A DNA stretch of 64,000 nucleotides, taken from positions 3,647 through 67,646 of the forward strand of contig CAWIVW010000010.1 of assembly GCA_963839695.1 (NCBI GenBank), written 5' to 3'. A program made the translations under genes and the position numbers. This DNA comes from an uncultured Acidimicrobiia bacterium. Its GTDB lineage: Bacteria > Actinomycetota > Acidimicrobiia > Acidimicrobiales > Ilumatobacteraceae. Below, one piece after another: positions 45,196-63,113 of this stretch. The notes below the pieces were generated by a model. It saw only the letters and a list, made by a program, of their open reading frames with translations. It was not told the DNA's origin and ran no database searches. Position 1 is the first letter of the stretch; every line of letters begins with the position of its first letter.

Positions 45196-45278
45196 GGGCG
45201 AGTGGCGGAATGGCAGACGCGCTGGCTTCAGGTGCCAGTGAGGGTTTCCTCGTGGGGGTTCAAGTCCCCCCTCGCCCA
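45196..45278 (+). tRNA. tRNA-Leu (anticodon CAG), class II with a long variable arm
   Basis: Acceptor stem GGGCGAG/CTCGCCC, anticodon stem-loop CTGGC-TTCAGGT-GCCAG, variable arm TGAGGGTTTCCTCGT, T-arm GGGGG-TTCAAGT-CCCCC, discriminator A. It is in the same position as leuT next to fhaA in mycobacteria. Confidence 0.93.
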
Positions 45279-45537
45279 CTGTAAAGCCGCTGCCGCCCGC
45301 CGAGATGCGTCTGAGGCGGGTACGCCACGTCGGTTGACGTCAGCGAGACGCCAAAGTGCTTGATCCCTGAGGGCCCGGGCCCCCTTGCATTTCTCGTGGA
45401 GGGTCGGACACCCGCATCTCCGGCGCACCCCGGTTGTCACCCGCCCGCGAGCTGAGCTTCGCGGACCAGCCTCTGCTGGCGGTATGGTCGAGCGCCAGTA
45501 TCGTCGTCATTCCGGCGGTCGCTCGGGGGGCTTCATC

Positions 45538-46464: not shown

Positions 46465-47058
46465 CAGCCCGGTTCCGTGAGCCGGCCTCCTGAACCGGAC
46501 CCACTGACAGCAACATCGCCTACTCCTCCGTGCCGCCCCCCGCATCAGCAGCATCCTGGCCCAGGCCCCACCAGACCGCAGCCGTGACCTCGACGCCCTC
46601 ACCAAGGTTCGGCGAGTGGCCGTCAGTGAGCTGAAGCAGGCCAACTTCGACGTAGCCCGGCTCGAATGCCGCAAGCGGCCGCTCGGGGAGCGCCGCAATC
46701 CCGACATCGAACTGATCCACGCGCAGCCGCGTGAGCACCACTCATGGGGACCGACAGGGCACCGGGTTCTCTGCTTCGGGGCGAGGAGGGGCTCACGCAG
46801 GTCGGACCGGTGGCGTCGCACGCGGGCTAGATGACAATTGGCTGATTGACTGATCACCGCCGCCCTGGCCCCCGGTCTTCGTCCGCCGCTGACCGGTCGA
46901 GCCGGGGCGACGGCACTCTCTACGGCGGCGTGTCCCGTCTCGTGGGGGCGCAGTCCGGGCACCGCCAGCGCGGGGGACGTTCGTGTCGAGGTAGACCACC
47001 GCCGGCAACACGCTCGGCGTTCAACTGGGGGCCTACTCCCAACGGACATCGCGTGTAT

Positions 47059-47300
47059 ATGAGCGACGCCCAGTGGACTGAGCTGGAGCCTTTGGCCCCT
47101 GCCGTCAGGTGAACGGCGCCGAGCCGTTCATTTCGTGCGGGACAGCTGGGTCACCGCGAACGGCGACCCGAGCCCGAAGGGACCGCGAAGACCGTGTGGG
47201 GACCTACGCGCTGCCGCGAGTTGTACCGGCAATCACCGTCGCCTACTGTGCCCGCCACGCCGGCAGACGGGGACCGGCTCGAGGGAGGGGACGGTGAGCG
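47059..47300 (+). mobile_element. Possible degraded IS5/DUF4096-type transposase N-terminal remnant
   Basis: MSDAQWTELEPLAPAVR* resembles the L/M-[ST]-D-x-x-W-x-x-[IL]-EPLLP start of IS5-family transposases. Downstream frames show only vague similarity. I did not see inverted repeats. Confidence 0.2.
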
Positions 47301-47377
47301 GGAGTCAGGGAAAGGTACGGTCGCCGGAACGCGGCCAAGGTCTGGATGTGGGGTCGCATGCTCGGCACGAAGTGCAG

Positions 47378-48961
47378 GTGCGAGGACGTCACCACCTGGG
47401 TTTGTGGATGGCACTGATGATTGCGGCGGCCGCGCTGGCGTCACCGCTTGTGGCGCCGAACCCACCGGCGGCGGACGCGGCTGGTCCGTTCACGGTGACC
47501 CGCTTGCTCAACCAGCTGACCGTCCGTCGGGAGAACAACCGGGGATACGACCGAGACAAGTTCGCGGGCTGGCTCGATCGGGACCACGATGGGTGCAACA
47601 CCCGGGCCGAGGTGCTGATGCAGGAAAGCCGGCGCCGGGTGCGCAGGACCGCCTCGTGCAGGGTGACGAGGGGGCGATGGTTCTCGACGTACGACGGTGT
47701 GACGATCTACCGGCCACGCCGGATCCGCATCGATCACGTTGTGGCGCTCGCCGAGGCATGGGGCTCAGGCGCCCGCCGTTGGAACCGGGACACCCGGAAG
47801 CGGTACGCCAACGACTTGGTGTTCGCCGGATCGTTGCGGGCGGTGTCGACAGGCTCGGACGTGCGCAAAGGCAACAAGGATCCCGCCGACTGGTTGCCGC
47901 CCCGGGCGGCCGCCCGCTGCCGCTACGTCCGTGACTGGGTGGCGATCAAGTGGCGTTGGGGGCTGTCAATCAATGTTGCCGAGCGCAAGGCGATCGGCAA
48001 CGTGCTTCGGCGGTGCCCCGCCATGACGGTGCGGGTATCCAGAGCCAGAGTCACCGTGGGCCCCGTCGACACGAGGTTCTCGTTCGTCGTCATGCCCGAC
48101 ACGCAGAACGAGGTATACGCCGGGGAGGTGCGCATGCAGGAGCGCGTCGACTGGCTGCTGGCCCACCGACGTCGCCTTGACATGCGGTGGGTGCTGCACA
48201 GCGGCGACGTCCACAACTGGGACACCGCCGACCACGCGCAGTTCGCGGCGATGAGCTCGTGGTTGCGCCCGCTGGAGACTGCCGGAGTGCCGATGGTGTT
48301 GACCACCGGCAACCACGACACCGCAGCGGTGTGTCCGGGCGGGAGCGCCTGCCCCGGTCAGGACACGAGCGTCGCGCTCCGCAACACGTCGACGTGGAAC
48401 TACTACTACCCGCCGGCCCGGTTCAGGCTCAACGGGGTGTACCAAGCCGGCAAGTCCGAAAACGGGTGGCGGGCGTTCAGCGCCGGTGGCAAGCGATGGC
48501 TCGCGCTCAGCCTGGAGCTGTATCCGCGCACGGCGGTCATCAAGTGGGCCAAGCAGGTGGTGGCGAACCATCCCCACCACAACGTGATCGTGGTGACGCA
48601 CCACTTCCTCGACCACCCCGGTCACGTGTCGACGAGCAACGGTGGGTACGGGGCGAACAGTCCGGCGACGTTGTGGAACGCGCTCGACGACTACCGCAAC
48701 GTGGTGATGACGTTCTCAGGTCACATGGGTCAGGCGGCCAACGGCACCCTGACCGCACCCGACGGGCATCGAGTGGCGACGTTCCTGCAGACCTTCCACG
48801 ACCCGACCTACAACCCGACGCGCATCGTCACCGTCGACACCGCCGCCCGCACGATCTCGACGAAGATCGTCGCCAACTGGAACCGGACCCTCCGCCAGAA
48901 CGTCAACTACGAGTACACCGCCTACCGGACGACGATCACCGGCATGCGCTACGTCAACTGA
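47378..48961 (+). CDS. Secreted DUF1524-type HNH nuclease domain fused to a calcineurin-like metallophosphoesterase (paralog 1, intact)
   Basis: Signal peptide ...LWMALMIAAAALASPLVA. DUF1524 part: GYDRDKFAGWLDRDHDGCNTRAEVL...IDHVVALAEAWGSGARRW...YANDL...RKGNKDPADWLPP. MPE part: FSFVVMPDTQNE, VLHSGDVHNW, TTGNHDT, VVTHHF and FSGHMG. The start codon (GTG 47378 or ATG 47408) is uncertain. Confidence 0.8.
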   Translation: MRGRHHLGLWMALMIAAAALASPLVAPNPPAADAAGPFTVTRLLNQLTVRRENNRGYDRDKFAGWLDRDHDGCNTRAEVLMQESRRRVRRTASCRVTRGRWFSTYDGVTIYRPRRIRIDHVVALAEAWGSGARRWNRDTRKRYANDLVFAGSLRAVSTGSDVRKGNKDPADWLPPRAAARCRYVRDWVAIKWRWGLSINVAERKAIGNVLRRCPAMTVRVSRARVTVGPVDTRFSFVVMPDTQNEVYAGEVRMQERVDWLLAHRRRLDMRWVLHSGDVHNWDTADHAQFAAMSSWLRPLETAGVPMVLTTGNHDTAAVCPGGSACPGQDTSVALRNTSTWNYYYPPARFRLNGVYQAGKSENGWRAFSAGGKRWLALSLELYPRTAVIKWAKQVVANHPHHNVIVVTHHFLDHPGHVSTSNGGYGANSPATLWNALDDYRNVVMTFSGHMGQAANGTLTAPDGHRVATFLQTFHDPTYNPTRIVTVDTAARTISTKIVANWNRTLRQNVNYEYTAYRTTITGMRYVN

Positions 48962-48963
48962 TC

Positions 48964-48989
48964 GGAGGTCGTACTCAGCCACGACCTCC
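48964..48989 (+). terminator. Hairpin after paralog 1
   Basis: GGAGGTCGT-ACTCAGCC-ACGACCTCC, a 9-bp stem starting 3 nt after the stop. Confidence 0.5.
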
Positions 48990-49280
48990 CCGCCGCGGAG
49001 CCCGCGCTCTCGACGAGGGCGGAGTACTCCTCGCACCATTCCGGGCGAGATTCAACGACGAGCAGTCAGCGGGGGGAGGCACTCCCCCGGCCCGCTCCCG
49101 ACCTTGGCGGTCCGAGGCTGGCCTCATTGGAGCGCGGGGACCGTCGACATCCTCGCTCGGATCGGCGATCAGGTGTTCCCGCGGTATTGCTGGTACGGCG
49201 AGAGAACGCATGTGACCAATGTCACGGTGGTTCGAGCGGGCGATAGTCGAGATCGCGCCTTTCGATGTCGATAGCAGACT

Positions 49281-50627
49281 GTGGCTCGTCTGTCTCGACT
49301 CGTCGTCACCGTAGTGTCGGTGGCGGTCGCGTCTGTAGCCGCGCCAGCAGTCGCATACGGCGCGGACTCCGACGGGTATGTGGTCAAGCCCGGCGATTCA
49401 CTCGTCGGCATCGCCGGAAGGATTGGTGTCCGCCTGGCGGACCTGCTCGCCGTCAATCACCTCACCGTGACCAGTCTGATCGTGCCCGGACAGCGGCTGG
49501 CGCTTCCGGCCACGACGGCGAGTGGGTCCTCGACGGTGCCGGGTGGGCCGGGTCACACGGTGCGCGCGGGTGACACGTTGGTTGGCATCGCCGCCCGCTA
49601 TCACGTCACCCTGGCCTCACTGCTCGCCGTCAATCACCTCACCGTGACCAGTCTGATCGTGCCCGGACAGCGGCTGGCGCTTCCGGCCACGACGGCGAGT
49701 GGTTCCTCGACGGTGTCGGGTGGGCCGGGTTACACGGTGCGCGCGGGTGACACGTTGGTTGGCATCGCCGCCCGCTATCACGTCACCCTGGCCTCACTGC
49801 TCGCCGTCAATCACCTCACCGTGACCAGTCTGATCGTGCCCGGACAGCGGCTGGCGCTTCCGGCCACGACGGCGAGTGGTTCCTCGACGGTGTCGGGTGG
49901 GCCGGGTTACACGGTGCGCGCGGGTGACACGTTGGTTGGCATCGCCGCCCGCTATCACGTCACCCTGGCCTCACTGCTCGCCGTCAATCACCTCACCGTG
50001 ACCAGTCTGATCGTGCCCGGACAGCGGCTGGCGCTTCCGGCCACGACGGCGAGTGGTTCCTCGACGGTGTCGGGTGGGCCGGGTTACACGGTGCGCGCGG
50101 GTGACACGTTGGTTGGCATCGCCGCGCGCTATGACGTCACACTCGGCTCACTCCTGGCCGTCAATCACCTCACCGTGACCAGTCTGATCGTGCCCGGACA
50201 GCGGCTGACCCTGCCCGCAGGAGCTGTCGCATCCTCGGCCACCACGGGCTCCGCGATCGACAGCGTGCTCACCTACGCCGTTGCTCAATTGGGCAAGCCG
50301 TACCGGTTCTTCGCCGCCGGGCCCCACGCCTTCGATTGCTCAGGCCTGACGTTGGCCGCCTACGCCCAGATCGGAGTCAGGCTCGTCCACTACAGCGCCT
50401 CCCAGGCCCAGCAGGGCAGCGCCGTCGATCTCACCGACGAAGCGATCCGACCAGGCGACCTGGTGTTCATGGACACTGACCACGACGGCAGCATCAACCA
50501 CGTCGGAATCGCGACCGACTCAACCACGTGGATCCAGGCGGCGCGACCGGGCGACGTCGTACGCATGGGACCGATGCCACCGAGGAGCACGATCGAGGCC
50601 GTTCGCCGTTTCGCATCGAACAATTGA
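49281..50627 (+). CDS. Secreted 5x LysM plus NlpC/P60 peptidoglycan endopeptidase (intact)
   Basis: Signal peptide, then five LysM units (Y.V..GD.L.GIA.R..V.L..LLAVN.L....I.PGQ.L.LP). The C-terminal part FDCSGLTLAAYAQIG...GDLVFM...INHVGIA is the NlpC/P60 Cys-His core. Confidence 0.9.
   Translation: MARLSRLVVTVVSVAVASVAAPAVAYGADSDGYVVKPGDSLVGIAGRIGVRLADLLAVNHLTVTSLIVPGQRLALPATTASGSSTVPGGPGHTVRAGDTLVGIAARYHVTLASLLAVNHLTVTSLIVPGQRLALPATTASGSSTVSGGPGYTVRAGDTLVGIAARYHVTLASLLAVNHLTVTSLIVPGQRLALPATTASGSSTVSGGPGYTVRAGDTLVGIAARYHVTLASLLAVNHLTVTSLIVPGQRLALPATTASGSSTVSGGPGYTVRAGDTLVGIAARYDVTLGSLLAVNHLTVTSLIVPGQRLTLPAGAVASSATTGSAIDSVLTYAVAQLGKPYRFFAAGPHAFDCSGLTLAAYAQIGVRLVHYSASQAQQGSAVDLTDEAIRPGDLVFMDTDHDGSINHVGIATDSTTWIQAARPGDVVRMGPMPPRSTIEAVRRFASNN
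49377..50215. repeat. 180-bp tandem repeat (~4.7 copies; copies 2-4 are almost identical at nucleotide level) encoding the LysM modules
   Basis: For example, the 49,56x, 49,74x and 49,92x kb copies differ by only a few bases. Confidence 0.9.
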
Positions 50628-50745
50628 CACCGGCCGTCACGCCGACTTGCGCTGCGGGCATTCTGCGAATACTGGGAACGGCCCACCTGGTCGTGCCGCC
50701 CCAAGCGCACCGGCCCTTCCGAGGGGCTCCTTTAGACCGAGTGGA

Positions 50746-51400
50746 TCAGACGGTAGGCCCGGCGGCGATGGTGTCGATGATGCTGACGACGGGGCCGTTG
50801 GTGGAGCTGCTGGACTGGTAGTGCTCGATGGCGACGCCGCCGGCAACCTGCAGCGCGGCGGTGGAGTCGGTCTGCTCGAGCAGCCACGCGGCCGGCTCGG
50901 CGGCGCCGTTGGCCCACACCTTGGCTGCCAACGACGTCGGATTGGTTCCGGCGACGCGGAGCTTCACCCGTACGAACTGGCCCGGCCCGAACCCGATGCT
51001 GTTCGCCCAGGCCAACGTCGTCTCCGCACCGTTCAGCCGGCGCACCAGATAGACGGCGATCATCCCGTTGGACTGGAAGCGCAGCTTCAACCGGTAGTCG
51101 GTGCTGGCGTTGACTCGCCGTCCGATCACCGAGACGTAAGCCCCGCCGCCGGTCTGCGCCTTGTCGACGGCCACGGCGGTCTCGACGACGCGCGTCCGTC
51201 GAGGACACCCCCAGGCTGGCGATTCGGCCAGAGCCGACGGGAACCGAGATCCGCCCGGCGCCACCGGACACGGAGTAGCTGCTCGCCACTCCACTCAGCG
51301 CCCAGGGCCCGCCGATGTCGGCGGCGCCCCACCCGTTCGACACCGCCCGCGAGAACGCATCCGACACGAACAGCGTCACCGGCGGCGGAGGCGGCGGAGG
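50746..51400. repeat. Direct repeat copy A (~650 bp, ~98-99% identical by eye to 51683-52337)
   Basis: Aligned by eye at a 937-bp offset with only scattered substitutions. It encodes the C-terminal lectin-like domain. Confidence 0.85.
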
Positions 51401-53477
51401 CGGCGGAGCAGTAACCGTCACCTGCTGCGTCGACGAACCGGTCGCACCGTCGTCATCGGTGACTGTCAGGGTGACGGTGTAGGTCCCGCCGGCGGCGTAG
51501 GTGTGCGTCGTGGTCGATCCCGAGCCGTTCGTTCCGTCGCCGAAGTTCCACGTCCACGTCCTGACAACGCCGTCGGAGTCACTGGACGAGCGGCCATCGA
51601 ACGCGACGTCCAAGCCGTCGGCGGTGGCTGTGAATGCGGCGACCGGGACGTTGTTCGGTGGCGGTGGTGGTGGCGGTGGTGGTGCACTGGTGGACCCGGC
51701 GGTGATGGTGTCGATGATGCTGACGACGGGGCCGTTGGTGGAGCTGCTGGACTGGTAGTGCTCGATGGCGACGCCGCCGGCAACCTGCAGAGCGGCGGTG
51801 GAGTCGGTCTGCTCGAGCAGCCACGCGGCCGGCTCGGCGGCGCCGTTGGCCCAGACCTTGGCTGCCAACGACGTCGGATTGGTTCCGGCGACGCGGAGCT
51901 TCACCCGTACGAACTGGCCCGGCCCGAACCCGATGCTGTTCGCCCAGGCCAACGTCGTCTCCGCGCCGTTCAGCCGACGCACCAGATAGACGGCGACCAT
52001 CCCGTTGGACTGGAAGCGCACCTTCAACCGGTAGTCGGTGCTGGCGTTGACTCGCCGTCCGATCACCGAGACGTAAGCCCCGCCGCCGGTCTGCGCCTTG
52101 TCGACGGCCACGGCGGTCTCGACGACGGCGTCCGTCGAGGACACCCCCAGGCTGGCGATTCGCCCAGAGCCGACGGGAACCGAGATCCGCCCGGCGCCAC
52201 CGGACACGGAGTAGCTGCTCGCCACTCCACTCAGCGCCCAGGGCCCGCCGATGTCGGCGGCGCCCCACCCGTTCGACACCGCCCGCGAGAACGCATCCGA
52301 CACGAACAGCGTCACCGGCGGCGGCGGAGGCGGAGGCGGCGGAGGTCCTCCTCCTTGCCGGAAAGGCCCGGTGATCTCGTACGTGTATCCCGTCGACCCG
52401 TCCGGGGCCACGCTGGGACGAGAGGTACAGCCGACTGCCGTCCGGGCTGAACGCGGGGCCGGCGACCTCGGAGCCCCCGTGGTTGACGATGCGACAGAAG
52501 GCGGTGACGTCGGTGGTGCCGCCGACGTCGGCAAGGATCCCGAGCTCCATGTTCCCTCCGTCCTCGGCGACGAAGATGTCCCCGGACGGTGCATGGATGG
52601 TGATGTTGTCGACGGCGTCGAGCGCGCTCGGGACGGCCACGCAGTCGTGGAAGACCGCGATCGAGCTGGCGACAGGGTCGAACCGCCAGACGCGCTTGTC
52701 ACCCTTGGTCGTGAAGTACACGGCATCATCGCCGGCCCAGATCCCCTCGCCACCGTTGAAGGCGGTCGTCGTCGCCTGTCGATCGGGTCCGTTCGGCGAC
52801 GTGGGGATCCACGTCACGACCGACCCCGACACGGACGCCGCGTAGAGGGACCCGCTGCCGAGGACGCCGGGGGCGGCGGGGACGAACTTGTACAGCCGTC
52901 CTGCGGGGTCGTCCTCGGTGAGGTAGAGATGACCCGTCGTAGCGTCGACCGCCACGGCCTCGTGGTTGAACGCACCGAGCGCCGGACGCTGCACGCCTTC
53001 CCCAGGACTGAGCGGTTGGCATTCGTACACTCGCCCGACCCCGCCGTTCTCCTCACACGACAACCAAGTCCCCCAGGGAGTGGGACCTCCCGAGCAATTG
53101 CGAGTCGTGTTGGAGAGAATCCGATAGGCGTCGACGATCGAGCCGTCGGACGCGAACTTCACGGCTGACGCCCCGCCGCCGCGGACGTCGAGCTCGGAGT
53201 TCGAGACGTAGACCCAGCCTCCGTTACCGGCCGAGAAGCACGCCCCGCCGTCCGGTGCGCCGTGCCAGAGGTACGTGGTCGGCCCGACGGGCATCCCAGT
53301 GCGGGCGATCAGACGGCTGGAGAAGCCCGCCGGGAGTTGGATGCCGTTGGCATCGGCCGGTCCCAGCGGTCCGTACGGCCCGGGTCCCGGCGTTGCCGCC
53401 ATAAGCCGGCCGAGGCGGGTCGACGACCATGCCAATGCGACGCCGCCCGCGATAAGTGCCCGCCTGTTGATCAACAC
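50746..53477 (-). CDS. Tat-secreted PhoX-like (DUF839) beta-propeller, then poly-Pro, lectin-like domain, poly-Pro, PKD domain, poly-Pro and a second lectin-like domain. Frameshifted (2 indels near 52390 and 51195).
   Basis: [17 protein letters not shown] is the twin-Arg signal. [19 protein letters not shown] is the DUF839/PhoX hallmark. [35 protein letters not shown] is the PKD domain. There are two ~190-aa copies of [30 protein letters not shown]... Confidence 0.8.
51683..52337. repeat. Direct repeat copy B (partner of 50746-51400)
   Basis: Same evidence as copy A. It encodes the internal lectin-like domain. Confidence 0.85.
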
Positions 53478-53560
53478 TGCAACCGCCCCTACGTATTACC
53501 CGTCCGAATTGCCCGTCCGACGGCGATGTTACCACCATCACTCAACCGGTACACGTGAGA

Positions 53561-54946
53561 TCACGTTCCGGCGCGGGGAACCGGCGAGGAGTGCGGCGCC
53601 GTTCGCGACGGCAGGGCGGCAAGCCGCTCGCGGCCGGCGGGCGACAGCAGGTCGATCACGTCGAAGCACAATGCCGTGCCGGCGGCGCGGAGCGCGAGGT
53701 CGCCGTCGCTTCGCGGGGCGGGCAGGTCGGCGGCGAGCAGAACCACCCGCGCCTCGGGGCATCGTCCGCGGAGCGCACCCGCCCGACCGAGCGCCCGCCA
53801 CACCTCGTCGATCCGCGTCAACCCTCCTCGCCGGCTGGTGTGGGCGCCGCACACCAGGAAGAACCACGACGTCCCGTCGTCGTCGGCGGCTACGAGGTCG
53901 ACGGTGACCCCGGTGCCGCTGATCCGTCGCTTGCGGCCCGCGATCCGGAACCCGGCTGCCGCGACTACGTCCTCGGCGAGCGTTGCTGCGGACTTGCCGT
54001 CGCCAGCGGCGTCGGTTCCGCCCAAGGAAAGCATCGCCAGCACCTCGTCCACCCGACGGCGGGCGATTTCGACGTAGCTCGCGTCGGTGTCGTAGCCGGC
54101 GAAGCGCCGGCAGAGCCGGGCCGCCGCGACGAGAGACGAGCCGCTGCCCATGAACGGGTCGAGAACCAGGTCGTCGCGATACGTGTAGAGGCGGATGAGC
54201 TGTTCGGGTAGCTCGACGGGGAACGGGGCGGGATGGCCGACGCGGCGAGCGCGTTCGGGCGGGATCGACCACACGTCGAGGGTCAGCCCCATGAACTCGT
54301 CGGACAGCAGCGTGCTCTCGTGCGGCAAACCTTCCGCGGCCCGCTGCTTCACTGAGCGGGCCCGGTCGAAGCGGCCTTTGCTGGCCACGACCACGCGTTC
54401 GGTGATGTCGCGGAGCACCGGATTCGTCGGGCTGCGGAACGATCCCCACGCGCACGACCCGTTGGCGCCCTCCGCCTTCTGCCAGATCAGCTCGCCCCGC
54501 AGCAGCAGGCCGAGATCGTGCTCGAGGATACGGATGACGTCGGCGGACAGGCTGCGGTACGGCCGGCGCCCGAGGTTGGCGACGTTGACCGCGATCCGCC
54601 CGCCAGGCTCCAGCTTGCGCGCACACTCGGCGAAGACCTCAGTGAGCATCGCGAGGTACTCGAGGTAGGAGGAGGGCACACCATCGCGTTCGAGCTCCTC
54701 TTCGTACTGCTTGCCGGCGAAGTACGGCGGCGACGTGACCACCAGCGCCACCGAACCGTCCTCGATCGCATCCATTCGGCGGGCGTCACCGTGGATGAAC
54801 GGGTCGGCGACCGGCACGGGTGCGCGCACCTCGTCGTCGGTGGAGAGCTCCGGGCTGCGAAAGCGCTCGTAGAACGCGGAAGCGTCGTGATTCTCGCGCC
54901 GGCCGACACCGAAGTTCGACGTGGCTGTCGGTCGTCTGGCTCCCAC
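53561..54946 (-). CDS. Beta-class N4/N6 DNA methyltransferase (SPPY then FxGxG order) with an extra ~150-aa C-terminal domain (intact, 461 aa)
   Basis: VVTSPPYFAGKQYEE (motif IV) precedes VLDPFMGSGSSLVAAARL (motif I). The C-terminal region GFRIAGRKRRISGTGVTVDLVAADDDGTSWFFLVCGAHTSRRGGLTRIDEVWRALG is of unknown function. No adjacent restriction gene is seen. Confidence 0.8.
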   Translation of the reverse strand: MGARRPTATSNFGVGRRENHDASAFYERFRSPELSTDDEVRAPVPVADPFIHGDARRMDAIEDGSVALVVTSPPYFAGKQYEEELERDGVPSSYLEYLAMLTEVFAECARKLEPGGRIAVNVANLGRRPYRSLSADVIRILEHDLGLLLRGELIWQKAEGANGSCAWGSFRSPTNPVLRDITERVVVASKGRFDRARSVKQRAAEGLPHESTLLSDEFMGLTLDVWSIPPERARRVGHPAPFPVELPEQLIRLYTYRDDLVLDPFMGSGSSLVAAARLCRRFAGYDTDASYVEIARRRVDEVLAMLSLGGTDAAGDGKSAATLAEDVVAAAGFRIAGRKRRISGTGVTVDLVAADDDGTSWFFLVCGAHTSRRGGLTRIDEVWRALGRAGALRGRCPEARVVLLAADLPAPRSDGDLALRAAGTALCFDVIDLLSPAGRERLAALPSRTAPHSSPVPRAGT

Positions 54947-54993
54947 GCGTACCGGAGCCTAGATGCCGGTCGCGCGGCCGAGCTGGATGAGGC

Positions 54994-55998
54994 TCAGCCT
55001 CCCGCGGATGCGAGCACTGGAGCCGGCGCGACCGCGTTGCCATCGCCGAACTTGAGCGGTTCCCACCAATGGCGGTGCGTGCGGTACCAGTCGACGGTGC
55101 GAGCGAGCGACTCTTCGAGGTCGTGTTGGGTGTGCCAACCCAAGGCGCTGATCTTGTCGGTCGTGATCGAGTAGCGCCGGTCGTGGCCGAGGCGGTCGGC
55201 GACGGGTTGGATGTAGGTGTCGTCGCGGCCGCACAGCTCGAGCAGCTTGTGGGTGAGGTCGACGTTGGGCAGCTCGTTGTGGGCGCCGATGTTGTAGATC
55301 TCGCCGACCGCGCCCTCGCGGAGGACGAGATCGAGAGCGCGCACGTTGTCCTCGACGTAGAGCCAGTCGCGCACGTTGAGGCCGTCGCCGTAGAGCGGGA
55401 CCTTCTGACCGTCGAGAAGGTTGGTCACGAAGAGGGGGATGACCTTCTCGGGGAACTGATAGGGCCCGAACTGGTTGCTGGAGCGGGTCACGATCACCGG
55501 TAGGTCATGCGTAGTGAGGTACGAGAGCGCGATCAGATCGCTGCCCGCCTTAGCCGCCGAGTACGGCGACCGGGGCGACAACGGGTCGGTCTCGCGGAAC
55601 GATCCCTCGGCGATCGAGCCGTAGACCTCGTCGGTGGAGATGTGCACGAAGCGCTCCACCCCCGCCTTGTGGGCGACGTCGCACAGCACGTTCGTGCCGT
55701 GACAGTTGGTCCGGACGAAGGCGTAGGGATCCGTGATCGATCGGTCGACATGGCTCTCGGCGGCGAAGTGGACGACCGCGTCGTGGCCGGGCAGGTGGGC
55801 GGTGACGTCGGCCAGGTCGCAGATGTCGGCGTGCACGAATCGGCACCGCTTGTCGTCGACCAGGTCTCTGATGTTCTCTGGGTTGCCGGCGTACGTCAAC
55901 GCGTCATAGATCGTGACCTCGTCGTCGGATGTCGCCAGCACGTGACGCACATAGTTGGAACCGATGAACCCGGCCGCGCCGGTGACGAACAATTTCAC
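54994..55998 (-). CDS. rmlB: dTDP-glucose 4,6-dehydratase
   Basis: GTG at 55998 follows AGGGAG. VTGAAGFIGSNYV, YSAAKAGSD (YxxxK), and an end in ...WWEPLK. Confidence 0.92.
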   Translation of the reverse strand: MKLFVTGAAGFIGSNYVRHVLATSDDEVTIYDALTYAGNPENIRDLVDDKRCRFVHADICDLADVTAHLPGHDAVVHFAAESHVDRSITDPYAFVRTNCHGTNVLCDVAHKAGVERFVHISTDEVYGSIAEGSFRETDPLSPRSPYSAAKAGSDLIALSYLTTHDLPVIVTRSSNQFGPYQFPEKVIPLFVTNLLDGQKVPLYGDGLNVRDWLYVEDNVRALDLVLREGAVGEIYNIGAHNELPNVDLTHKLLELCGRDDTYIQPVADRLGHDRRYSITTDKISALGWHTQHDLEESLARTVDWYRTHRHWWEPLKFGDGNAVAPAPVLASAGG

Positions 55999-56027
55999 GG
56001 AATGCTCCCTCTTACTCTTCAACTGAT

Positions 56028-57107
56028 CTATTCGACGTCGACCTGGCAGTGGTCACCGATCATCAACCGCAAGGCCCGCGGTCGGCGCTGCGTGCGGCTG
56101 ACCACCGTCTCCCGCCCGATCAAACTGTCTTCCAGGCGGGCGATGTCGAGCACCCGCGAGTCGTCCATCACGACCGAGTGCTCGATCTCCGAGTTGACGA
56201 TCTCACAGCCGGACCCGATTGCGGAGAAGGGACCGATGAAGCTGTCGACCACCCGCGTGTTGGAGCCGATCGCCACGGGCCCACGCAGCGTCGACTTGAT
56301 CACCTCGGCGCCCGCCTCGACGACGACCCGGCCGTCGATCGACGACTCCGCATCCACCCGACCATCGACGCGATGGGGCAACCGCTCCAAGAGCAGTCGA
56401 TTCGCCTCCAACAGCGGCGTCAGCTTGCCGGTGTCGATCCACCAGCCGGTCAACAGCTCCGTGCGCACGCGCCGCCCTTGATCGATCAACCACTGGATGG
56501 CATCGGTGATCTCCAGCTCGCCCCGCGCTGACGGTTTGATCGCCCGAACCGCCTCGTGGATGGTCGGGTCGAACAGGTAGACCCCGACCAGAGCGAGGTC
56601 CGAGGGCGGGTTCTCGGGCTTCTCGACCAATGCCACGACGTGACCGTCGCGATCCAGCTCGGCGATCCCGAACCGATGCGGGTCCGTGACCTGCTTCAGC
56701 AGGATCTGCGCCGCGGGGGGATCGGCACCGGCCCGGGCGGCCTCGAACGCCGCGATGAACGCCCCCAGGTCCTGTTCCAGCAGGTTGTCGCCCAGGTACA
56801 TGACGAAGTCGGAATCGCCGAGGAAGTCGCGGGCGATCAGCACGCAGTGCGCCAGACCGAGCGGCGCGTCCTGCGGCAAGTAGGTGATCGACGCCCCGAA
56901 CCGCGAGCCGTCGCCCAACGCGTCCTGCACCTCCGCCGCGGTGTCGCCGACGATGACCCCGATCTCCTTGATTCCCGCCTGAACCATGGCCTCGATCCCA
57001 TAGAAGAGGATCGGTGTGTTCGCCACGGGCACCAGCTGCTTCGCCCGGGTATGGGTGATCGGACGCAGCCGGGTGCCGGCGCCACCAGCCAGGATGAGGG
57101 CTTTCAT
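56028..57107 (-). CDS. rmlA: Glucose-1-phosphate thymidylyltransferase, long form with a C-terminal left-handed beta-helix
   Basis: MKALILAGGAGTRLRPITHTRAKQLVPV, YLPQDAPLGLAH and LEITDAIQ, followed by hexapeptide-repeat-like sequence. Confidence 0.9.
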   Translation of the reverse strand: MKALILAGGAGTRLRPITHTRAKQLVPVANTPILFYGIEAMVQAGIKEIGVIVGDTAAEVQDALGDGSRFGASITYLPQDAPLGLAHCVLIARDFLGDSDFVMYLGDNLLEQDLGAFIAAFEAARAGADPPAAQILLKQVTDPHRFGIAELDRDGHVVALVEKPENPPSDLALVGVYLFDPTIHEAVRAIKPSARGELEITDAIQWLIDQGRRVRTELLTGWWIDTGKLTPLLEANRLLLERLPHRVDGRVDAESSIDGRVVVEAGAEVIKSTLRGPVAIGSNTRVVDSFIGPFSAIGSGCEIVNSEIEHSVVMDDSRVLDIARLEDSLIGRETVVSRTQRRPRALRLMIGDHCQVDVE

Positions 57108-57257
57108 AGGGACCGGCAGTGTACGGGCGACCGTGCCCAAGGCGGCGGGTCGGCGTGGTGACGACACTTCGGTGACAGGTCGATGACGATCGTGTGACAG
57201 CGACGCCGTCGAACCTGTTACCGTCCGCCGAGCGGGCTACACGAATGGGGGAATTTG

Positions 57258-58763
57258 ATGCGAGTCCGCCGGTCTCTGGTAGCTCTCGCCGCCGTTGCTG
57301 CCGTGGCCGTCACGGTGACGGCTCCAACCGTCCTCACTCCCGCGGTCACGGCGCAAGCCGACCCGCGGTGCGACGCGATGGATGCGCCCGCCTACGTGCG
57401 CGTCAACCCGACGACCGGCGTCATGCTGGTGACGCCGTGGCAGTCGGAGGCCAACGGGGCCGCGGCCAACTTCGGATTCACGGTCAACCTCGGGACGCCG
57501 TTCCGAGTGAGCACGAAGCCGGCGGCGGGCTTGGTGGGCGTCCATCGCCTGTATCACCCCGTGACGAAGAACTTCGTCTACGTCAGGTATGCCGCCGAGA
57601 TCGCCACCGCCGTGCAGGCGTTCGGGTACGAGGACGACGGCACGGTGTTCTACGCCGGTACGGAGGATCTCGGATGCACTGTGCCGCTCCATCGCTTCCG
57701 GCGCGGAGCGGTCCATCGGCTGGCCCTCGATAACGAGCGCGCCGCGCTGGAGGCGGACGGATGGGTGTACGAACACATCGCCTTCTACGTGGTTCCGGCG
57801 GGCGGCGGGGCACCACCGACCGCACCACCGACCACGGCCGCACCGCCCCCGGCTCCGCCTCCCGATACGGACACGACCTTTTCGTTCGCCGTGGTGCCGG
57901 ACACGCAGAACGAGACGTACGCGGGTGAGGTGCGCACGCAGGAGCGGGTGGAGTGGCTGCTGGCCAACCGGGGGAGCTTGGATCTGCGGTGGGTGTTGCA
58001 CAGTGGTGACGTCCACAACTGGGACACCCCCGATCACGACCAGTACGTGGCGATGAGTTCATGGTTGCGACCGTTGGACACGGCCGGGATGCCGTGGGTG
58101 TTCACTCCCGGTAACCACGACACGGCGGCGGTGTGTCCGGGGGGGAGTGCCTGTCCGGGCCAGGACGCGAGCGTCGCGCTGCGCAACACGGCCACGTGGA
58201 ATGCGTATTACCCGCCGGCGCGGTTCGGGCTGCAGGGGGTGTTCGAGGCCGGCAAGTCCGACAATGGATGGCGGGCGTTCAGCGCCGGGGGCAAGCAGTG
58301 GCTGGTGCTCAGCCTCGAGCTGTGGCCGCGCACGGCGGTGATCAACTGGGCCAAGACGGTGGTGGCGAACCATCCCCACCACAACGTGATCGTCGTGACG
58401 CACATGTTCCTCGAGCCGGGGGGTTACGTGTCGACGAGCAATGGTGGGTACGGGGCGAACAGCCCGGCGACGTTGTGGAACGCGCTCGACGACTATCCGA
58501 ACGTGGTGATGACGTTCTCCGGACACGTCGGGCAGGCCGCCAACACCTCGGTCACCGCGCCGGACGGGCATCGCGTCGCGATGTACCTCCAGGCCTTCCA
58601 CGACTCCACGTACAACCCGACGCGCATCGTCACCGTCGACACCGCGGCGGGGACCGTCTCGACGCGGATCGTCGCCAACTGGGACCGGATCCTGCGCCAG
58701 AACGTCAACTATGAATACACCGCCTACCGGGCGACGCTCACCGGCATGCGCTTTGTCAACTAA
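57258..58763 (+). CDS. Secreted metallophosphoesterase with an N-terminal repeat (putative binding) module in place of the HNH domain (paralog 2, intact)
   Basis: ATG at 57258 follows GGGGGAA. After the signal peptide come N-terminal units such as VGVHRLYHPVTKNFVYV...GYEDDGTVFYA and VPLHRFRRGAVHRLAL...GWVYEHIAFYV. A Pro-rich linker leads to an MPE domain nearly identical to paralog 3. Confidence 0.8.
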   Translation: MRVRRSLVALAAVAAVAVTVTAPTVLTPAVTAQADPRCDAMDAPAYVRVNPTTGVMLVTPWQSEANGAAANFGFTVNLGTPFRVSTKPAAGLVGVHRLYHPVTKNFVYVRYAAEIATAVQAFGYEDDGTVFYAGTEDLGCTVPLHRFRRGAVHRLALDNERAALEADGWVYEHIAFYVVPAGGGAPPTAPPTTAAPPPAPPPDTDTTFSFAVVPDTQNETYAGEVRTQERVEWLLANRGSLDLRWVLHSGDVHNWDTPDHDQYVAMSSWLRPLDTAGMPWVFTPGNHDTAAVCPGGSACPGQDASVALRNTATWNAYYPPARFGLQGVFEAGKSDNGWRAFSAGGKQWLVLSLELWPRTAVINWAKTVVANHPHHNVIVVTHMFLEPGGYVSTSNGGYGANSPATLWNALDDYPNVVMTFSGHVGQAANTSVTAPDGHRVAMYLQAFHDSTYNPTRIVTVDTAAGTVSTRIVANWDRILRQNVNYEYTAYRATLTGMRFVN

Positions 58764-58800
58764 CCCGAAGTTTCCTTCGCCTGACCGCCGGCGGGAAGTC
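57868..58800. repeat. Dispersed direct repeat copy 1 (MPE domain plus ~35 nt of 3' flank; the first ~530 bp are >99% identical by eye to 59522-60050)
   Basis: Aligned by eye at an offset of 1654 bp. There are 4-5 substitutions in the first ~530 bp, then a divergent patch (EPGGYVSTSNGG versus DGTGQISGGNGG). Confidence 0.85.
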
Positions 58801-58863
58801 GGTGGAACGTCGTCGGTCCACCCTCCGCGGGAACGAAGCCGCCTGAGGCAGTGGGCAGCTCTG

Positions 58864-60416
58864 ATGATGGCAGCGGCCGCGCTCGTGATGTCGCTTGTTG
58901 CGGCGCGCCCACCGGTTGCGGACGCTGCCGGCCCGTTCACCATGACCAGGCTGCTCAACCAGCTCACGGTCCGTAGGGAGAACAACCGGGGATACAACCG
59001 AGACAGGTTCACGGGCTGGCTGGATCGGGATCACGACGGGTGCAACACCCGGGCCGAGGTTCTGATGCAGGAAAGCCGGCGCCGGGTCCGCCGGACGGCC
59101 TCGTGCATCGTCACCCGGGGGCGTTGGTTCTCGACCTACGACGGCCGGATGATCAGCCGGCCCCGCCGGATCCGCGTCGATCACGTCGTACCGTTGGCCG
59201 AGGCGTGGGGGTCAGGTGCCCGCCGTTGGAGCGCGGGCACTCGTCATCGGTACGCCAACGACTTGCGATTCGCCGGATCGTTGCGCGCGGTATCCCAGAG
59301 CTCGAACCGGAGCAAGCGCGACGACGATCCCGCCGCTTGGCTGCCGCCTCGGGCGGCGGCCCGCTGCGCCTACGTCCGTGACTGGGTGGCGATCAAGTGG
59401 CGGTGGGGGCTGTCGATCAATGTTGCCGAGCGAGCGGCGATCAGGAAGGTGCTCAGGCAGTGCCCCACGATGAGGGTCTGGGTGTCCAAAGCGAAAGTCA
59501 CCGTGACTCCGTCGCCGGGTGCGGACACGACCTTTTCGTTCGCCGTGGTGCCGGACACGCAGAACGAGACGTACGCGGGTGAGGTCCGCACGCAGGAGCG
59601 GGTGGAGTGGCTGCTGGCCAACCGGGGGAGTTTGGATCTGCGGTGGGTGTTGCACAGTGGTGACGTCCACAACTGGGACACCCCTGATCACGACCAGTAC
59701 GTGGCGATGAGTTCATGGTTGCGACCGTTGGACACGGCCGGGATGCCGTGGGTGTTCACTCCCGGTAACCACGACACCGCGGCGGTGTGTCCGGGGGGGA
59801 GTGCCTGTCCGGGCCAGGACGCGAGCGTCGCGCTGCGCAACACGGCCACGTGGAATGCGTATTACCCGCCGGCGCGGTTCGGGCTGCAGGGGGTGTTCGA
59901 GGCCGGCAAGTCCGACAATGGATGGCGGGCGTTCAGCGCCGGGGGCAAGCAGTGGCTGGTGCTCAGCCTCGAGCTGTGGCCGCGCACGGCGGTGATCAAC
60001 TGGGCCAAGACGGTGGTGGCGAACCATCCCCACCACAACGTCATCGTCGTGACGCACATGTTCCTCGACGGCACTGGTCAAATATCGGGGGGCAATGGTG
60101 GGTATGGGGCGAACAGCCCGGCGACGTTGTGGAACGCGCTCGACGACTATCCGAACGTGGTGATGACGTTCTCCGGGCACGTCGGGCGGGCCGCCAACAC
60201 TTCGCGGACGGCGCCGGACGGGCATCGCGTCGCGATGTACCTCAGGCCTTCCACGACTCCACGTACAACCCGACGCGCATCGTCACCGTCGACACCACAC
60301 GGGGAACGATCTCGACGTGGATCGTCGCCAACTGGGACCGGATCCTCCGCCGGAACGTCACCTACGAGTACACCGCCTACCGGGCGACCATCACCGGCAT
60401 GCGCTTCCTCAACTGA
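58864..60416 (+). CDS. Secreted DUF1524 HNH nuclease plus metallophosphoesterase fusion (paralog 3), frameshifted (1 missing C near 60243)
   Basis: MMAAAALVMSLVAARPPVADA..., GYNRDRFTGWLDRDHDGCNTRAEVL, VDHVVPLAEAWGSGARRW and NRSKRDDDPAAWLPP, followed by the MPE motifs. The tail QAFHDSTYNPTRIVTVD...GMRFLN* is in the next frame. The start codon is uncertain. Confidence 0.75.
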
Positions 60417-60455
60417 CCCGAAGTTGCCTTCGGCCTGGTTGACAGCGCCGCCGGT
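59522..60455. repeat. Dispersed direct repeat copy 2 (partner of 57868-58800)
   Basis: Same evidence as copy 1. Confidence 0.85.
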
Positions 60456-60625
60456 GGCGATCGGTGGCCTGTGCGCACTGCGAACTAACGCTTGCACTGC
60501 GCACACAGACCTATTACGGTTCCGTGTCGGTTAGAACGATATTGTGTCGTTCTCGCCACCGTGTCGTGTCAGCCCATACCACGTAGTCACGCCTGGACGG
60601 GTGCGTCGACGGTCAGGACTTTGCC

Positions 60626-62899
60626 ATGCCTGCTGCCTCGCTCCCGTCTCAGTACGGTCGCGCCCGCCACCACCTCAAGGTGAGCTTGACGGTGAGTCTC
60701 CTGGTGGGTGCGATCACCGTCGCGATCGGCCCGTCGCCGGCTGTCCACGCCGCCTCACCGTGCCCGAATGCACCGATCCCGATCTACCACGTCGTGCGTC
60801 CGGCGGATGGTGTCAGCCTCTATACGCTCGAACCTCCAGGAGGTGAGCAGCGCCGCGAGCTACGGGTTCACCGACAATCGCGGAATCGCCTTCCACGCCG
60901 CGCAGCAGGCCCAGGGCACGATGGTCGCGATCCACCGGCTCCACAATCCAGCGAGCGGTGACTTCGTCTGGGTCGTGAACGGCCCCGAAGTTCAGGCCGC
61001 CGTCCCAGTACGGATACATCAATCAGGGCCCGTTTTTCGCTGCTTCGTCCGTCGACGATGCCTGCCTCGTCCCGGTCCGCCGGTACGTGCGGGGGGCGGT
61101 TCACCGCTTCGCGGTCACTGCCGCCGACCAGCAGGCGCTGGCGTCCGCTGGATGGGCCGACGAAGGGGTTCGCTTCTACGCCGCGCCATCGACGGGCACA
61201 TCGCCTCCGCCACCTCCACCACCCCGCCCTCGGGCGGGCCGGGATCGCTGCCGGTCGGCGCGGCGAGCTACCCGGTACCCGCCGGCGCCGTCTACGTGTC
61301 ACCGAGCGGCAATGACGCCAGCACCGGCACCGCGGCGGCCCCCGTGCGTACGCTCGCGCGAGCGGTCGCGTTGGCTCCCGCAGGCGGGACGGTCGTGCTA
61401 CGCGCCGGTCGATATCGGGAAACGGTCACGATCACAAAGCGCGTCACCATTCAGAACGCGCCCGGTGAGGCGGCCTGGCTGGACGCCAGCACGCCCGCTC
61501 ACCGGCTGGGTCCGTACCGCCACGGGATGGCGGAAGGACGGGTGGGCGACCCGCTTCGACCACAGCCCGACGTACACCCAAGGCGCCCCGGACGGGGCAG
61601 CGCCCTACTGGCAGTTCGTGAATCCGTCTTTCCCCATGGCCGCCCACCCGGACCAGGTGTGGATCAACGGCGTCGCCCAGACCCAGGTGGCGTCGCTGTC
61701 CCAGTTGCGCGCCGGCGCCTTCTTCTTCGACGAAGCGCGGTCGCAGTTGCACATCGGCAGCGACCCGACCGGGCGGACGGTCGAGGCGAGCAGCCTGGCC
61801 AAGGCGCTGTCGGTCCGGGCGAGCGGAACGGTGATCCGGGGCATCGGGATCCGCCGGTACGCCCCCTCGGTGTGGATGGTGGCGGCGGTGACGCTCGAGG
61901 CAACCGTCGATCCGGGTCGAGAACGTCGTCATCGACGGAATGGCGACGACCGGCATCAGCGCCCTCGCGGCGGACATCGTGCTCGACCGGTGACCGTGCT
62001 GAACAGCGGCATGCTCGGAATCCACGTCCGCTTCGCCGATCGCCTGCAGCTCACATCGGTGCTCGTCGCAAGGCAACAACGCCGAACGATTCAACATCGC
62101 CCCGGTGGCGGGGGGAATCAAGGTCGGCGCAGACCCGCGGCGTGACCGTGCGTGACAGCAGCTTCTCCGGAAACCTCGGTCACGGGTTCTGGATCGACAT
62201 GTCCGTCTACAACACGACGTACGCCAACACCACGTTCCGGGACAACGCCGGAACGGGGCTCTTCCTGGAGATCTCGGGCCGGGCCACCGTCGTCGACAAC
62301 CTGTTCTCGGGCAACGGCGAGTTCGGCATCAAGGTCAACAACACGAGTGACGTGAAGATCTGGAACAACACGTTCGTCGGCAACGGCCGTCCGCTCAATC
62401 TCGTCCAGGACTCGCGTCGCAACACGAATCCGAACGACCCCGCCGTCGACCCGCGAGTTCCGTGGCCGGACCCGGCCATGCCCTGGACGCTCGGTCCGGT
62501 CACGGTGGCCAACAACGTGGTGGGCAACGCTCGAGCGAGCGCCAACTGCCTCCTCTGCGTCGAGGACTACAGCCAGCAGAAGACCGCCGAGCAGATGGGC
62601 ATCACCGCCAACAGCGACGTGTATCACCGCCCGACCGCCAGCCAACCGAGCTGGCTCGTGGTGTGGTCCCGAGGACCGGGCTAGCCCGGCCGTCTACACG
62701 ACCCTCGCGGCGTTCACCGCGGCGACCGGGCAGGAGCGCGCTGGGACGCGAGTTCATCGGAGCTCCGATCGTCGACGCCAACGGCACCTTGACTGCGGCA
62801 GTGGCGTCCCTGGCGCCCACGGTTGCATCACCGTTGCCGGCCGATGTCGCCGCCTTGGCGGCTCGTGCGAGCGGAGAGCGGCACCTCGGCATCTGGTAA
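60626..62899 (+). CDS. Secreted right-handed parallel beta-helix protein (polysaccharide lyase/depolymerase-like) with the same N-terminal repeat module as paralog 2. Heavily frameshifted (at least 8 indels).
   Basis: Signal peptide, then three units (IPIYHVVRPADGVSLYTLE..., VAIHRLHNPASGDFVWVV..., VRRYVRGAVHRFAV...GWADEGVRFYAA) and poly-Pro. The beta-helix part includes YVSPSGNDASTGTAAAPVRTLARAV and VRDSSFSGNLGHGFWIDMSVYNTTYANTTFRDNAGTGLFLEISGRATVVDNLFSGNGEFGIKVNNTSDVKIWNNTFVGN. The tail ends at GERHLGIW* (62899). Confidence 0.7.
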
Positions 62900-62994
62900 A
62901 TCAGCGCCGGTCTACCGCGGACGGCTGACGTTCGCGGGTGACGGGTAGATGATCCGTCGGTGAACGGCCGGCGGCGTCTTTCGAGGTTTTTGGC

Positions 62995-63022
62995 TTGCAG
63001 TTCGCGGATGCCCCTGTATCAT
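62995..63022 (+). promoter_or_regulatory. Candidate sigma-70-type promoter for the sugar-transferase gene
   Basis: TTGCAG-N16-TATCAT in a locally AT-richer intergenic stretch, ~90 nt upstream of the GTG at 63114. Confidence 0.3.
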
Positions 63023-63113
63023 CCGGCGCTCGCGGACGAGTAGGCACGGTTGCGGACGCCGTGTAGGAGAGGGACAATTGCGGGCGGAATCAGAAGCGCG
63101 GGAGCAGGAGGTT

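Follow-up and report, generated by a model that had tools for sequence, protein, structure and literature searches.

Three paralogous, predicted exported metallophosphoesterases in an uncultured Acidimicrobiia bacterium, two of them fused to DUF1524 nuclease domains

In this study, we analysed a stretch of 64,000 nucleotides from an uncultured Acidimicrobiia bacterium (contig CAWIVW010000010.1 of assembly GCA_963839695.1), which is called the window below. The window is high-GC actinobacterial DNA. Its encoded proteins occur in the records of a single 84.9-kb contig, and near-identical sequence is present in independent soil metagenomes. Part of it codes mainly for exported enzymes, as judged from the list of open reading frames (ORFs) and from Pfam, and contains the three genes that are considered here, P1, P2 and P3. 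Judged from their sequences, all three encode paralogous exported metallophosphoesterases (MPEs) of one subfamily, which is marked by the first motif PDTQ. In P1 and P3 the MPE is preceded by a DUF1524 nuclease domain, and in P2 by a DUF5648 domain. The coordinates of the genes, of their parts and of the other features are collected in Table 1.

Table 1. Positions of the genes, domains and other features, counted from the first letter of the window
Feature	Coordinates	Strand	Details	Basis
P1	47378..48961	+	secreted DUF1524 nuclease-MPE fusion	ORF list, Pfam, signal-peptide heuristics
P1 signal peptide	~47378-47479		cleavage ADA/AG	
P1 nuclease	~47480-48067		followed by 4-aa linker	
P1 MPE	48068-48958			
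P2	57258..58763	+	secreted DUF5648-MPE	Pfam DUF5648 (E 2.5e-14), Metallophos
P2 signal peptide	57258-57359		cleavage AQA/DP	
P2 DUF5648	~57396-57797		followed by Pro-rich linker	
P2 MPE	57870-58760			
P3	58864..60416	+	second nuclease-MPE fusion, 100 nt downstream of P2	Pfam on read-through protein
P3 signal peptide	to ~58926			
P3 nuclease	~58927-59523			
P3 MPE	59524-60413			
Homogenised tract, P2 copy	57868..58414	+	547 nt, 5 differences	alignment, breakpoint test
Homogenised tract, P3 copy	59522..60068	+	547 nt, 99.1% identity to P2	
Duplicated 3' flank	58764..58787 (P2), 60417-60441 (P3)	+		blastn ends 58783/60437, flank sequences
Missing C in P3 (frameshift)	60242..60243	+		alignment, repair, independent contig
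PhoX-like beta-propeller	51579..53477	-	RR-containing N-terminus	Pfam PhoX (2.1e-31), PKD
DUF5648 + right-handed beta-helix (DUF1565/NosD-like) protein	60626..62896	+	secreted	Pfam, tblastn, synteny

Domains of the three proteins

The original prediction had described P1 and P3 as signal peptide, DUF1524 nuclease and phosphoesterase, and P2 as a different N-terminal module on the same phosphoesterase. Both descriptions were borne out by Pfam matches above the gathering cut-offs, and the module of P2 was identified as DUF5648. In P1, GmrSD_C (PF07510) covers aa 96-205 and Metallophos (PF00149) aa 255-450; in P2, DUF5648 covers aa 47-180 and Metallophos aa 211-425; in P3, with its frameshift read through, GmrSD_C covers aa 71-195 and Metallophos aa 226-440. 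GmrSD_C scored 25.7 bits in P1 and 40.8 bits in P3 (cut-off 23), and Metallophos 25.8-31.1 bits in the three proteins (cut-off 21.5). A search of NCBIfam assigned no family. The N-termini of P1, P2 and P3 are all Sec signal peptide-like by heuristic criteria, as had been proposed. P1 starts at GTG 47378, and the source gene call starts at ATG 47417. For P3, an alternative CTG start at 58843 would place one extra Arg in the n-region.

The nuclease domain belongs to a very large actinobacterial family, whose members are ~220 aa long and annotated as 'HNH endonuclease family protein'. Named hosts of stand-alone relatives are Streptomyces, Nonomuraea and Promicromonospora, besides many metagenome-assembled genomes (MAGs). 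Members of the family are 41-51% identical to the N-domains of P1 and P3, and essentially all homologues start with a signal-like N-terminus. Conserved are D119-H120, N145-D146, K164 and four Cys residues, of which C94, C181 and C213 are invariant and C73 is kept in at least 90% (alignment A1). The classical HNH motif reads H-H..P ... N-L ... C-H..K. By analogy, His120 would act as general base, Asn145 as structural Asn and Asn161 as metal ligand. Asn161 is kept in 150 of 160 aligned domains and the D-H dyad in 158, including nearly all domains without Asn161. P3 holds the complete D-H / N / N-x-x-K His-Me motif. The AlphaFold model of the nuclease (predicted local distance difference test (pLDDT) 88.7) gave weak fold matches (E at least 0.2) that were nearly all His-Me nucleases, with Vibrio extracellular endonuclease I and Vvn at the top. 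Searches of PDB sequences with single proteins and with family profiles found nothing significant for either the nuclease or the MPE, and only the fold search was informative.

Stand-alone secreted DUF1524 proteins have a signal peptide and the four Cys residues in common with P1 and P3. Their D-H / N-D / N-x-S-K motif is complete in P3, and P1 departs from it by Asp161 and Arg163. They differ from both in being single-domain or in bearing Excalibur, LTD, HhH or SLH tails in place of an MPE. Among the nuclease relatives, we observed fusions to ComEA-type HhH (HhH_3) repeats and to lamin-tail (LTD), Excalibur, SLH and cell-wall-binding domains. Extracellular DNA (eDNA) as substrate fits these fusions to HhH, lamin-tail and Excalibur domains, and export fits the four conserved Cys residues of the nuclease together with a conserved Cys pair in the MPE.

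The MPE subfamily occurs in Intrasporangiaceae, myxobacteria, Luteimonas and Dokdonella (Xanthomonadales) and in many metagenomes. Its usual forms are MPE alone, DUF5648+MPE (the commonest), MPE+DUF7910 and tandem MPE-MPE. DUF5648-MPE proteins of Pedococcus, Oryzobacter, Myxococcus, Corallococcus, Cystobacter, Dokdonella and Luteimonas have the exact architecture of P2 and belong to the same subfamily, with invariant PDTQxE, GD, GNHD and SGHxG and the Cys pair, whereas P1 and P3 carry the nuclease in place of DUF5648. DUF5648 is described as a three-bladed propeller and a proposed glycan binder (10.1101/2025.01.06.631476). Binding of O-antigen-type glycans was proposed, and the domain is found in GH70 enzymes and in an endolysin (10.1101/2025.01.06.631476; 10.64898/2026.04.26.720912).

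The PDTQ motif, which had been noted as an unusual replacement of DxH, is present in all three genes, and in 48 family members P12, D13, Q15 and E17 never vary. It is a signature of the subfamily and not a defect of P1-P3. Invariant motifs of the MPE are P-D-T-Q-x-E, G-D, G-N-H-D, His180 and S-G-H-x-G, with the active-site residues D13, D49, N84, H85, H180 and H221; His246 and the Cys pair are near-invariant. Mapped by motif position, five of the seven canonical metal ligands (DxH, GD, GNH, H, GHxH) are kept. The MPE model (pLDDT 96) had 82 PDB matches at E<=0.001, and all 50 listed were of the MPE fold. The closest solved structures, at a TM-score of ~0.6, were Lmo2642 (E 1.7e-11), purple acid phosphatases, YydB, GpdQ and Mre11. 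Lmo2642 is a cyclic-nucleotide phosphodiesterase according to Kim et al. (2011), as cited in PMC4320098. The MPEs depart from purple acid phosphatases in motif II (GDVHNW, not GDxxY) and motif V (GHxG), and match them at TM ~0.6; Pfam found no 5_nucleotid_C domain of the UshA/YhcR type in P1-P3. The fold and the chemistry of the MPE are clear, and its substrate we infer.

Three other proteins of the PDTQ subfamily (P0241, P0242 and P0243) carry tandem MPE-MPE copies. The first copy lacks GNHD and SGH in P0241 and P0242. P0242 also has cohesin and FIVAR domains, and P0243 has Big_7 and a degenerate second copy.

Fusion, duplication and homogenisation

The MPE domains of P1, P2 and P3 align gap-free over 891 nt, with 143 differences between P1 and P2, 152 between P1 and P3 and 44 between P2 and P3. 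The differences between P2 and P3 are unevenly spread: five of them fall within the leading 545 nt, against 39 in the 346 nt that follow (89% identity). The five differences within the tract are all synonymous. The tract ends at a breakpoint at 58415/60069 (maximum chi-square 48), and 0 of 2000 permutations reached the observed value (p<0.0005). Clustered identity, a sharp breakpoint and an older divergence beyond the tract (synonymous divergence, dS, of 0.20) are all present, as expected for gene conversion. The two estimates that had been made by eye were close: ~530 bp of more than 99% identity in the 5' halves of the P2 and P3 phosphoesterases corresponds to the measured tract, and 80-85% similarity of the P1 and P3 nuclease domains to 82.4% nucleotide and 80% protein identity. 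P2 and P3 are indeed adjacent, but the shared 3' flank of ~35 nt was slightly generous, since it is clear for only ~20-24 nt after the stop codon and patchy to ~40 nt.

A related 206-kb contig (L007) carries a single DUF5648-MPE gene directly before a DUF5648-beta-helix gene. P2 aligns with this single gene over its full length. The 3' part of the L007 gene and the sequence downstream correspond in order to the MPE of P3, the spacer and the beta-helix gene of the window. Compared with L007, the window holds an extra MPE copy and ~650 nt for signal peptide and nuclease. Because L007 has one DUF5648-MPE gene at this site, P3 is a lineage-specific addition, and the P2 architecture is the ancestral one. 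In a neighbour-joining tree, the MPE domains group as (P1,(P2,P3)) with 95% support, and this clade stands beside L007, P0003 and P0008. For P1 against P3, dS was 0.47 in the nuclease domain and 0.48 in the MPE; for the MPE it was 0.48 between P1 and P2 and 0.70-0.86 between any of the three genes and L007, and the 3' part of the MPE gave the value of 0.20 for P2 against P3 mentioned above. The near-equal dS of 0.47-0.48 in both domains shows that the fusion is older than the duplication that separated P1 and P3. Values of dN/dS were 0.14-0.27 overall and 0.46 for the 3' part of P2 and P3, and both domains are under purifying selection. The nearest free-standing nuclease, encoded on L008, is 72-74% identical to the N-domains of P1 and P3, and runs into a proline linker and a Cys-rich Excalibur-like tail where P1 and P3 enter the MPE.

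Independent histories of the domains had been suspected, and the uneven identity of P2 and P3, the synteny with L007, the tree and the dS values agree with this. The ancestral gene encoded a DUF5648-MPE protein. In the lineage of the window, one copy exchanged DUF5648 for the signal peptide and catalytic part of a secreted DUF1524 His-Me nuclease that had stood alone, with a linker of 4-7 residues between nuclease and MPE. This fusion arose once, after the split from the L007 lineage, and was then duplicated to give P1 and P3. The MPE of P3 was homogenised with P2 at least twice, in an older event in the 3' part (dS 0.20) and in a recent one (the tract of Table 1). One fusion, a duplication, repeated homogenisation of P2 and P3 and continued constraint form a four-step history that is the simplest reading of the sequences. 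The locus could serve as a clean, datable case of a domain swap that was followed by concerted evolution of tandem paralogues.

The fused architecture is very rare. A word-indexed search of 5.8 billion proteins returned, among the 120 best matches, GmrSD_C together with Metallophos only in the proteins of the window itself. Full-length P1 (both domains) was then the query of an exhaustive HMMER search against 1.84 billion representatives. It had 12,439 representative matches, with a single further nuclease-MPE fusion, P0348, which as a query led to the relatives P0389, P0391 and probably P0390 on metagenomic contigs. A scan of GTDB species genomes returned only distant stand-alone nucleases (MAGs of Thermoleophilia and Gaiellales), with no close genome and no fusion. 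The original prediction knew of no characterised member with this architecture; it is not unique, as P0348 and its relatives form a second clade. This clade shares with P1 and P3 a signal peptide, a nuclease of the same DUF1524 family (40-48% identical in alignment A3; P0348 49% in the search) and a C-terminal MPE. It differs by an MPE that resembles purple acid phosphatases (GDxxY, GNHE, GHNH), by an FN3-like linker and by CBM96 and fn3 as usual partners, and all its members are without Asn161. Because its MPE is of this different type, the second clade is of independent origin. The nuclease was thus joined to a secreted phosphoesterase twice, each time in place of a carbohydrate-binding module.

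Since the assembly contains errors, we considered whether the near-identical tract, the tandem or the fusions could stem from a collapsed or chimeric long-read assembly. The extent given for P3 in the original prediction comprises the expected architecture once the frame is repaired, but a 1-nt deletion after 60242 had been overlooked: P3 reads CCT-CAGG where P2 has CCTCCAGG and P1 has CCTGCAGA. The ORF 58711-60534 loses the frame at this point, and the final 58 codons of P3 are read in another frame, with its end at 60416. The missing C is present in X1, a contig of a separate, independent soil run that matches 60157-60342 with a single mismatch. X1 represents P3 and not P2, since the two genes differ at many positions there, and at least one natural population thus has an intact P3. 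Relative to its intact 660-aa orthologue in L007, the beta-helix gene shifts frame at least three times. Taken together, these shifts, the frameshift in the PhoX-like gene and the deletion in P3 point to a (long-read) assembly that is prone to indels and not to pseudogenes. The frameshift of P3 is thus probably an assembly error. That P3 is a true pseudogene was rejected in view of the restored frame in X1 and of the further indels in the assembly.

The same indels make an artefact conceivable for the locus as a whole, and no run that spans the P2-P3 junction or spacer was found for the same strain, only relatives of ~90% identity, so that the tandem rests on the assembly and on synteny. However, soil-metagenome short-read contigs from two further studies (X6, 47977-48222, and X8, 47989-48138) cross the domain junction of P1 near 48067/48068 with 95-96% identity and without gaps, and the P1 fusion is therefore not a chimera. 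Independent contigs also match, at 99% or more, the DUF5648 region of P2 and the 3' part of P3 together with its flank. Collinearity of the flanks with L007 and the synonymous nature of all differences in the tract speak against an artefact as well, and insertions of 650-nt domains are not produced by indel errors. We therefore consider an artefact very unlikely. In addition, a contig of 246 nt (X3, depth 9.5, one mismatch) matches the P3 nuclease domain at 59026-59271. It comes from a wastewater run labelled as metagenomic RNA-Seq and is possibly a hint of transcription, with carry-over of DNA as the alternative.

Proposed function and its alternatives

Extracellular breakdown of nucleic acids appears to be the most likely function. 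After Sec export, the His-Me domain would nick or cut extracellular DNA, and perhaps RNA, and the tethered binuclear MPE would then hydrolyse phosphoester ends or oligonucleotides. Nucleic acid would thereby be converted locally towards nucleosides and phosphate, which may serve nutrient scavenging or the clearing of a matrix. P2 might perform the same phosphoesterase chemistry with a glycan holding it in place. Export signals, domain identities, conservation and evolutionary history are documented by the sequences, and we infer the substrates, the succession of the reactions and any regulation by phosphate. The best indirect evidence for a functional coupling of the two activities is that the same nuclease family was fused independently to two types of MPE, which is a Rosetta-stone argument for joint action. 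As a whole, exported MPEs of the PDTQ family with the history of fusion and homogenisation described above and a coupled breakdown of nucleic acid form the explanation that we prefer with moderate confidence.

A combination of this kind has precedents. YhcR of Bacillus subtilis carries an extracellular non-specific nuclease and an MPE-type nucleotidase module on one polypeptide; it consists of OB-fold and SNase domains and a 5'-nucleotidase-type MPE with 5_nucleotid_C, and is sortase-anchored. YhcR is thus a functional analogue of P1 and P3, but the nuclease parts are non-homologous, as that of YhcR has no His-Me finger. The paper on YhcR (Oussenko et al., 2004) is cited by its title in PMC4714964 and PMC6085458. 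In Vibrio cholerae, the secreted nucleases Dns and Xds together with the phosphatases UshA, CpdB and PhoX use eDNA as a phosphate source (PMC4714964). There too, a secreted nuclease acts before MPE-type nucleotidases to free phosphate from eDNA, and Dns/endonuclease I is the top, weak fold match of the N-domain. The V. cholerae enzymes differ in that they are separate proteins, periplasmic or secreted, of a Gram-negative and Pho-regulated. Scavenging of eDNA is thus a known functional theme, and P1 and P3 would add to it a domain combination that is new, rare and of recent evolutionary origin.

Several observations weigh against the breakdown of nucleic acid. The HNH residues, which were to be confirmed on an alignment, are complete in P3, but P1 carries N161D and S163R at near-invariant positions of the nuclease. 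In the MPE, two canonical ligands are absent (DxH is DTQ and GHxH is GHxG), both at the first metal site; the near-invariant His246 may compensate for a lost ligand. The usual partners of this MPE are glycan-binding modules and not nucleic-acid modules, and its native substrate may therefore be a glycopolymer phosphodiester. A literature search found no characterised secreted DUF1524 nuclease or DUF5648-MPE. P3 is split over two ORFs in this assembly. The upstream regions had been proposed as a place to look for Pho boxes. No PHO box of the Streptomyces-type direct repeat was found near P1-P3, although the consensus of this taxon may differ, and loose matches in the window stayed at chance level (5 against 6 expected). 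Finally, the gene neighbourhoods of the MPE homologues P0003, P0062 and P0055 had nothing in common.

The DUF1524 domain could alternatively be mainly a targeting module that holds the MPE on eDNA, for example in a biofilm matrix, with cutting weakened or lost at least in P1. In both groups of fusions the nuclease occupies the usual position of a carbohydrate-binding module, namely DUF5648 here and CBM96 in the second clade. Ten aligned domains lack the predicted metal ligand Asn161. P0132 among them carries no information, as its gene call is frameshifted. The remaining nine comprise P1, five MPE fusions of the second clade, the GH12 fusion P0373, the heparinase-like fusion P0449 and one stand-alone protein. 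Fusions to non-catalytic domains retain Asn161. The enzyme that follows the secreted DUF1524 domain is a GH12 glycosidase in P0373 and a heparinase II/III-like lyase in P0449. However, the motif of P3 is complete, the Asp that replaces Asn161 in P1 is still able to bind metal, and the near-universal D-H dyad would be unexpected in a dead domain. Only ~4 independent events stand behind the pattern, which is therefore a lead and not a result, and a mainly targeting role seems rather unlikely to us. More generally, one could speculate that secreted DUF1524 domains were repeatedly recruited as N-terminal modules that replace carbohydrate-binding modules on extracellular hydrolases (two unrelated MPE types, a GH12 and a heparinase-like lyase), with loss of the predicted metal-binding Asn in nearly all of these fusions, and that a nuclease was thereby turned into an eDNA-binding module, with P1 as an intermediate and P3 as a true nuclease. 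We hold this idea only tentatively and doubt it more than we believe it. If it is true, the recruited eDNA-binding module would target matrix-degrading enzymes to DNA-rich biofilm or necromass.

Potentially, the MPEs act instead on phosphodiester polymers of the cell envelope, such as teichoic acids or phosphoglycans, as parts of a lytic or antagonistic secretome in which the nuclease is a separate activity. The proposed binding of O-antigen by DUF5648 and its presence in GH70 enzymes and an endolysin would suit such a role, as would the frequency of DUF5648+MPE in myxobacteria, Luteimonas and Dokdonella and the neighbouring genes, which encode a DUF5648-beta-helix protein, a peptidoglycan hydrolase of the LysM-NlpC/P60 type and a trypsin-like protease. 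However, genes for wall polymers showed no conserved genomic link to the MPEs, and the two independent nuclease fusions argue for a nucleic-acid role of the fused forms. We hold envelope polymers as the target to be rather unlikely. A cytoplasmic defence role against modified phage DNA, as for the type IV restriction enzymes GmrSD, BrxU and SspE, is suggested by nothing but the name of the Pfam domain. The His-Me domain (GmrSD_C/DUF1524) is common to these enzymes and to P1 and P3, in keeping with the PF07510 match and with the assignment in the original prediction to the nuclease domain of GmrSD-type enzymes. P1 and P3 are not parts of a GmrSD enzyme, however: they have no DUF262 NTPase or GmrS partner domain by Pfam and no PADLOC match, their N-termini are signal-like by the heuristics, their Cys residues are conserved, and their relatives bear extracellular domains. 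By the absence of DUF262 and of a PADLOC match and by the features of export, a GmrSD-like defence role was rejected.

If nucleic-acid breakdown is the function, cleavage of nucleic acid and removal of phosphate esters would be united in one exported polypeptide, a compact means of scavenging; eDNA is a large pool of phosphorus and nucleotides in soil. The locus further draws attention to two large families of secreted enzymes, both uncharacterised: the DUF1524 nucleases of actinobacteria and the PDTQ phosphoesterases, in which the first metal site is altered. Current understanding is not overturned by these genes, and their value will depend on biochemistry.

Neighbourhood of the genes

The region of P1, P2 and P3 has 67-70% GC and lies 3' of a tRNA-Leu gene (45196-45279), which was the only match of the Rfam scan. 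Scans for sigma-70 promoters and terminators gave no calls. The products encoded in the neighbourhood are a trypsin-like protease, P1, a hydrolase with five LysM repeats and NlpC/P60, a PhoX-like propeller with a PKD/repeat tail, an N6/N4 DNA methylase, RmlB- and RmlA-like proteins, P2, P3 and the DUF5648-beta-helix protein. In L007, the orthologue of the latter gene comes directly after the one MPE gene. A frameshift separates the PhoX-like gene from its C-terminal PKD/repeat extension (ORF 50732-52753, minus strand). The PhoX-like identity, proposed earlier, was confirmed by Pfam, but the use of this gene as support for the function of P1-P3 was not: it lies on the opposite strand, ~2.6 kb from P1, so that its proximity adds little, and it is context and not an operon partner of P1-P3.

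The tRNA-Leu gene (anticodon CAG) directly follows FhaA/FhaB-like genes. From 45300 to 64000, GC is 0.67-0.70, against mostly 0.70-0.74 in the preceding 25 kb, and the region 3' of the tRNA gene is rich in secreted enzymes with one lone DNA methylase. This region may be a variable island. The methylase is an N6/N4 DNA methyltransferase (53561-54946, minus strand; PF01555) with a C-terminal extension of ~160 aa, and no restriction partner was evident among the neighbouring ORFs. A direct repeat of ~650 nt (50752-51408 and 51689-52344, 98-99% identity, spacing 936-937) flanks the PKD domain that belongs to the extended C-terminus of the PhoX-like protein. A tandem unit of 177 nt (4.3 copies, 98% identity, 49443-50207) codes for the LysM repeats of the LysM-NlpC/P60 peptidoglycan hydrolase (49281-50627). 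The ~650-nt repeat is the third near-identical repeat within 13 kb, and homogenisation therefore seems to be common in the region.

About 250 nt upstream of P1, at 47110-47130, lies a perfect 8-bp inverted repeat, TGAACGGC-GCCGA-GCCGTTCA. It holds GTTCA half-sites, which are inverted and thus do not form the direct repeat of a PHO box. An intergenic motif, ATTACGnTTCnGTGTCnGTTnGAnCGATnTnGTGTCG, with repeated GTGTCG lies 5' of the beta-helix gene at 60513-60560 and has no match in Rfam. It is kept in L007 (11560-11607) although the surrounding spacer has diverged, and may be an operator or a leader.

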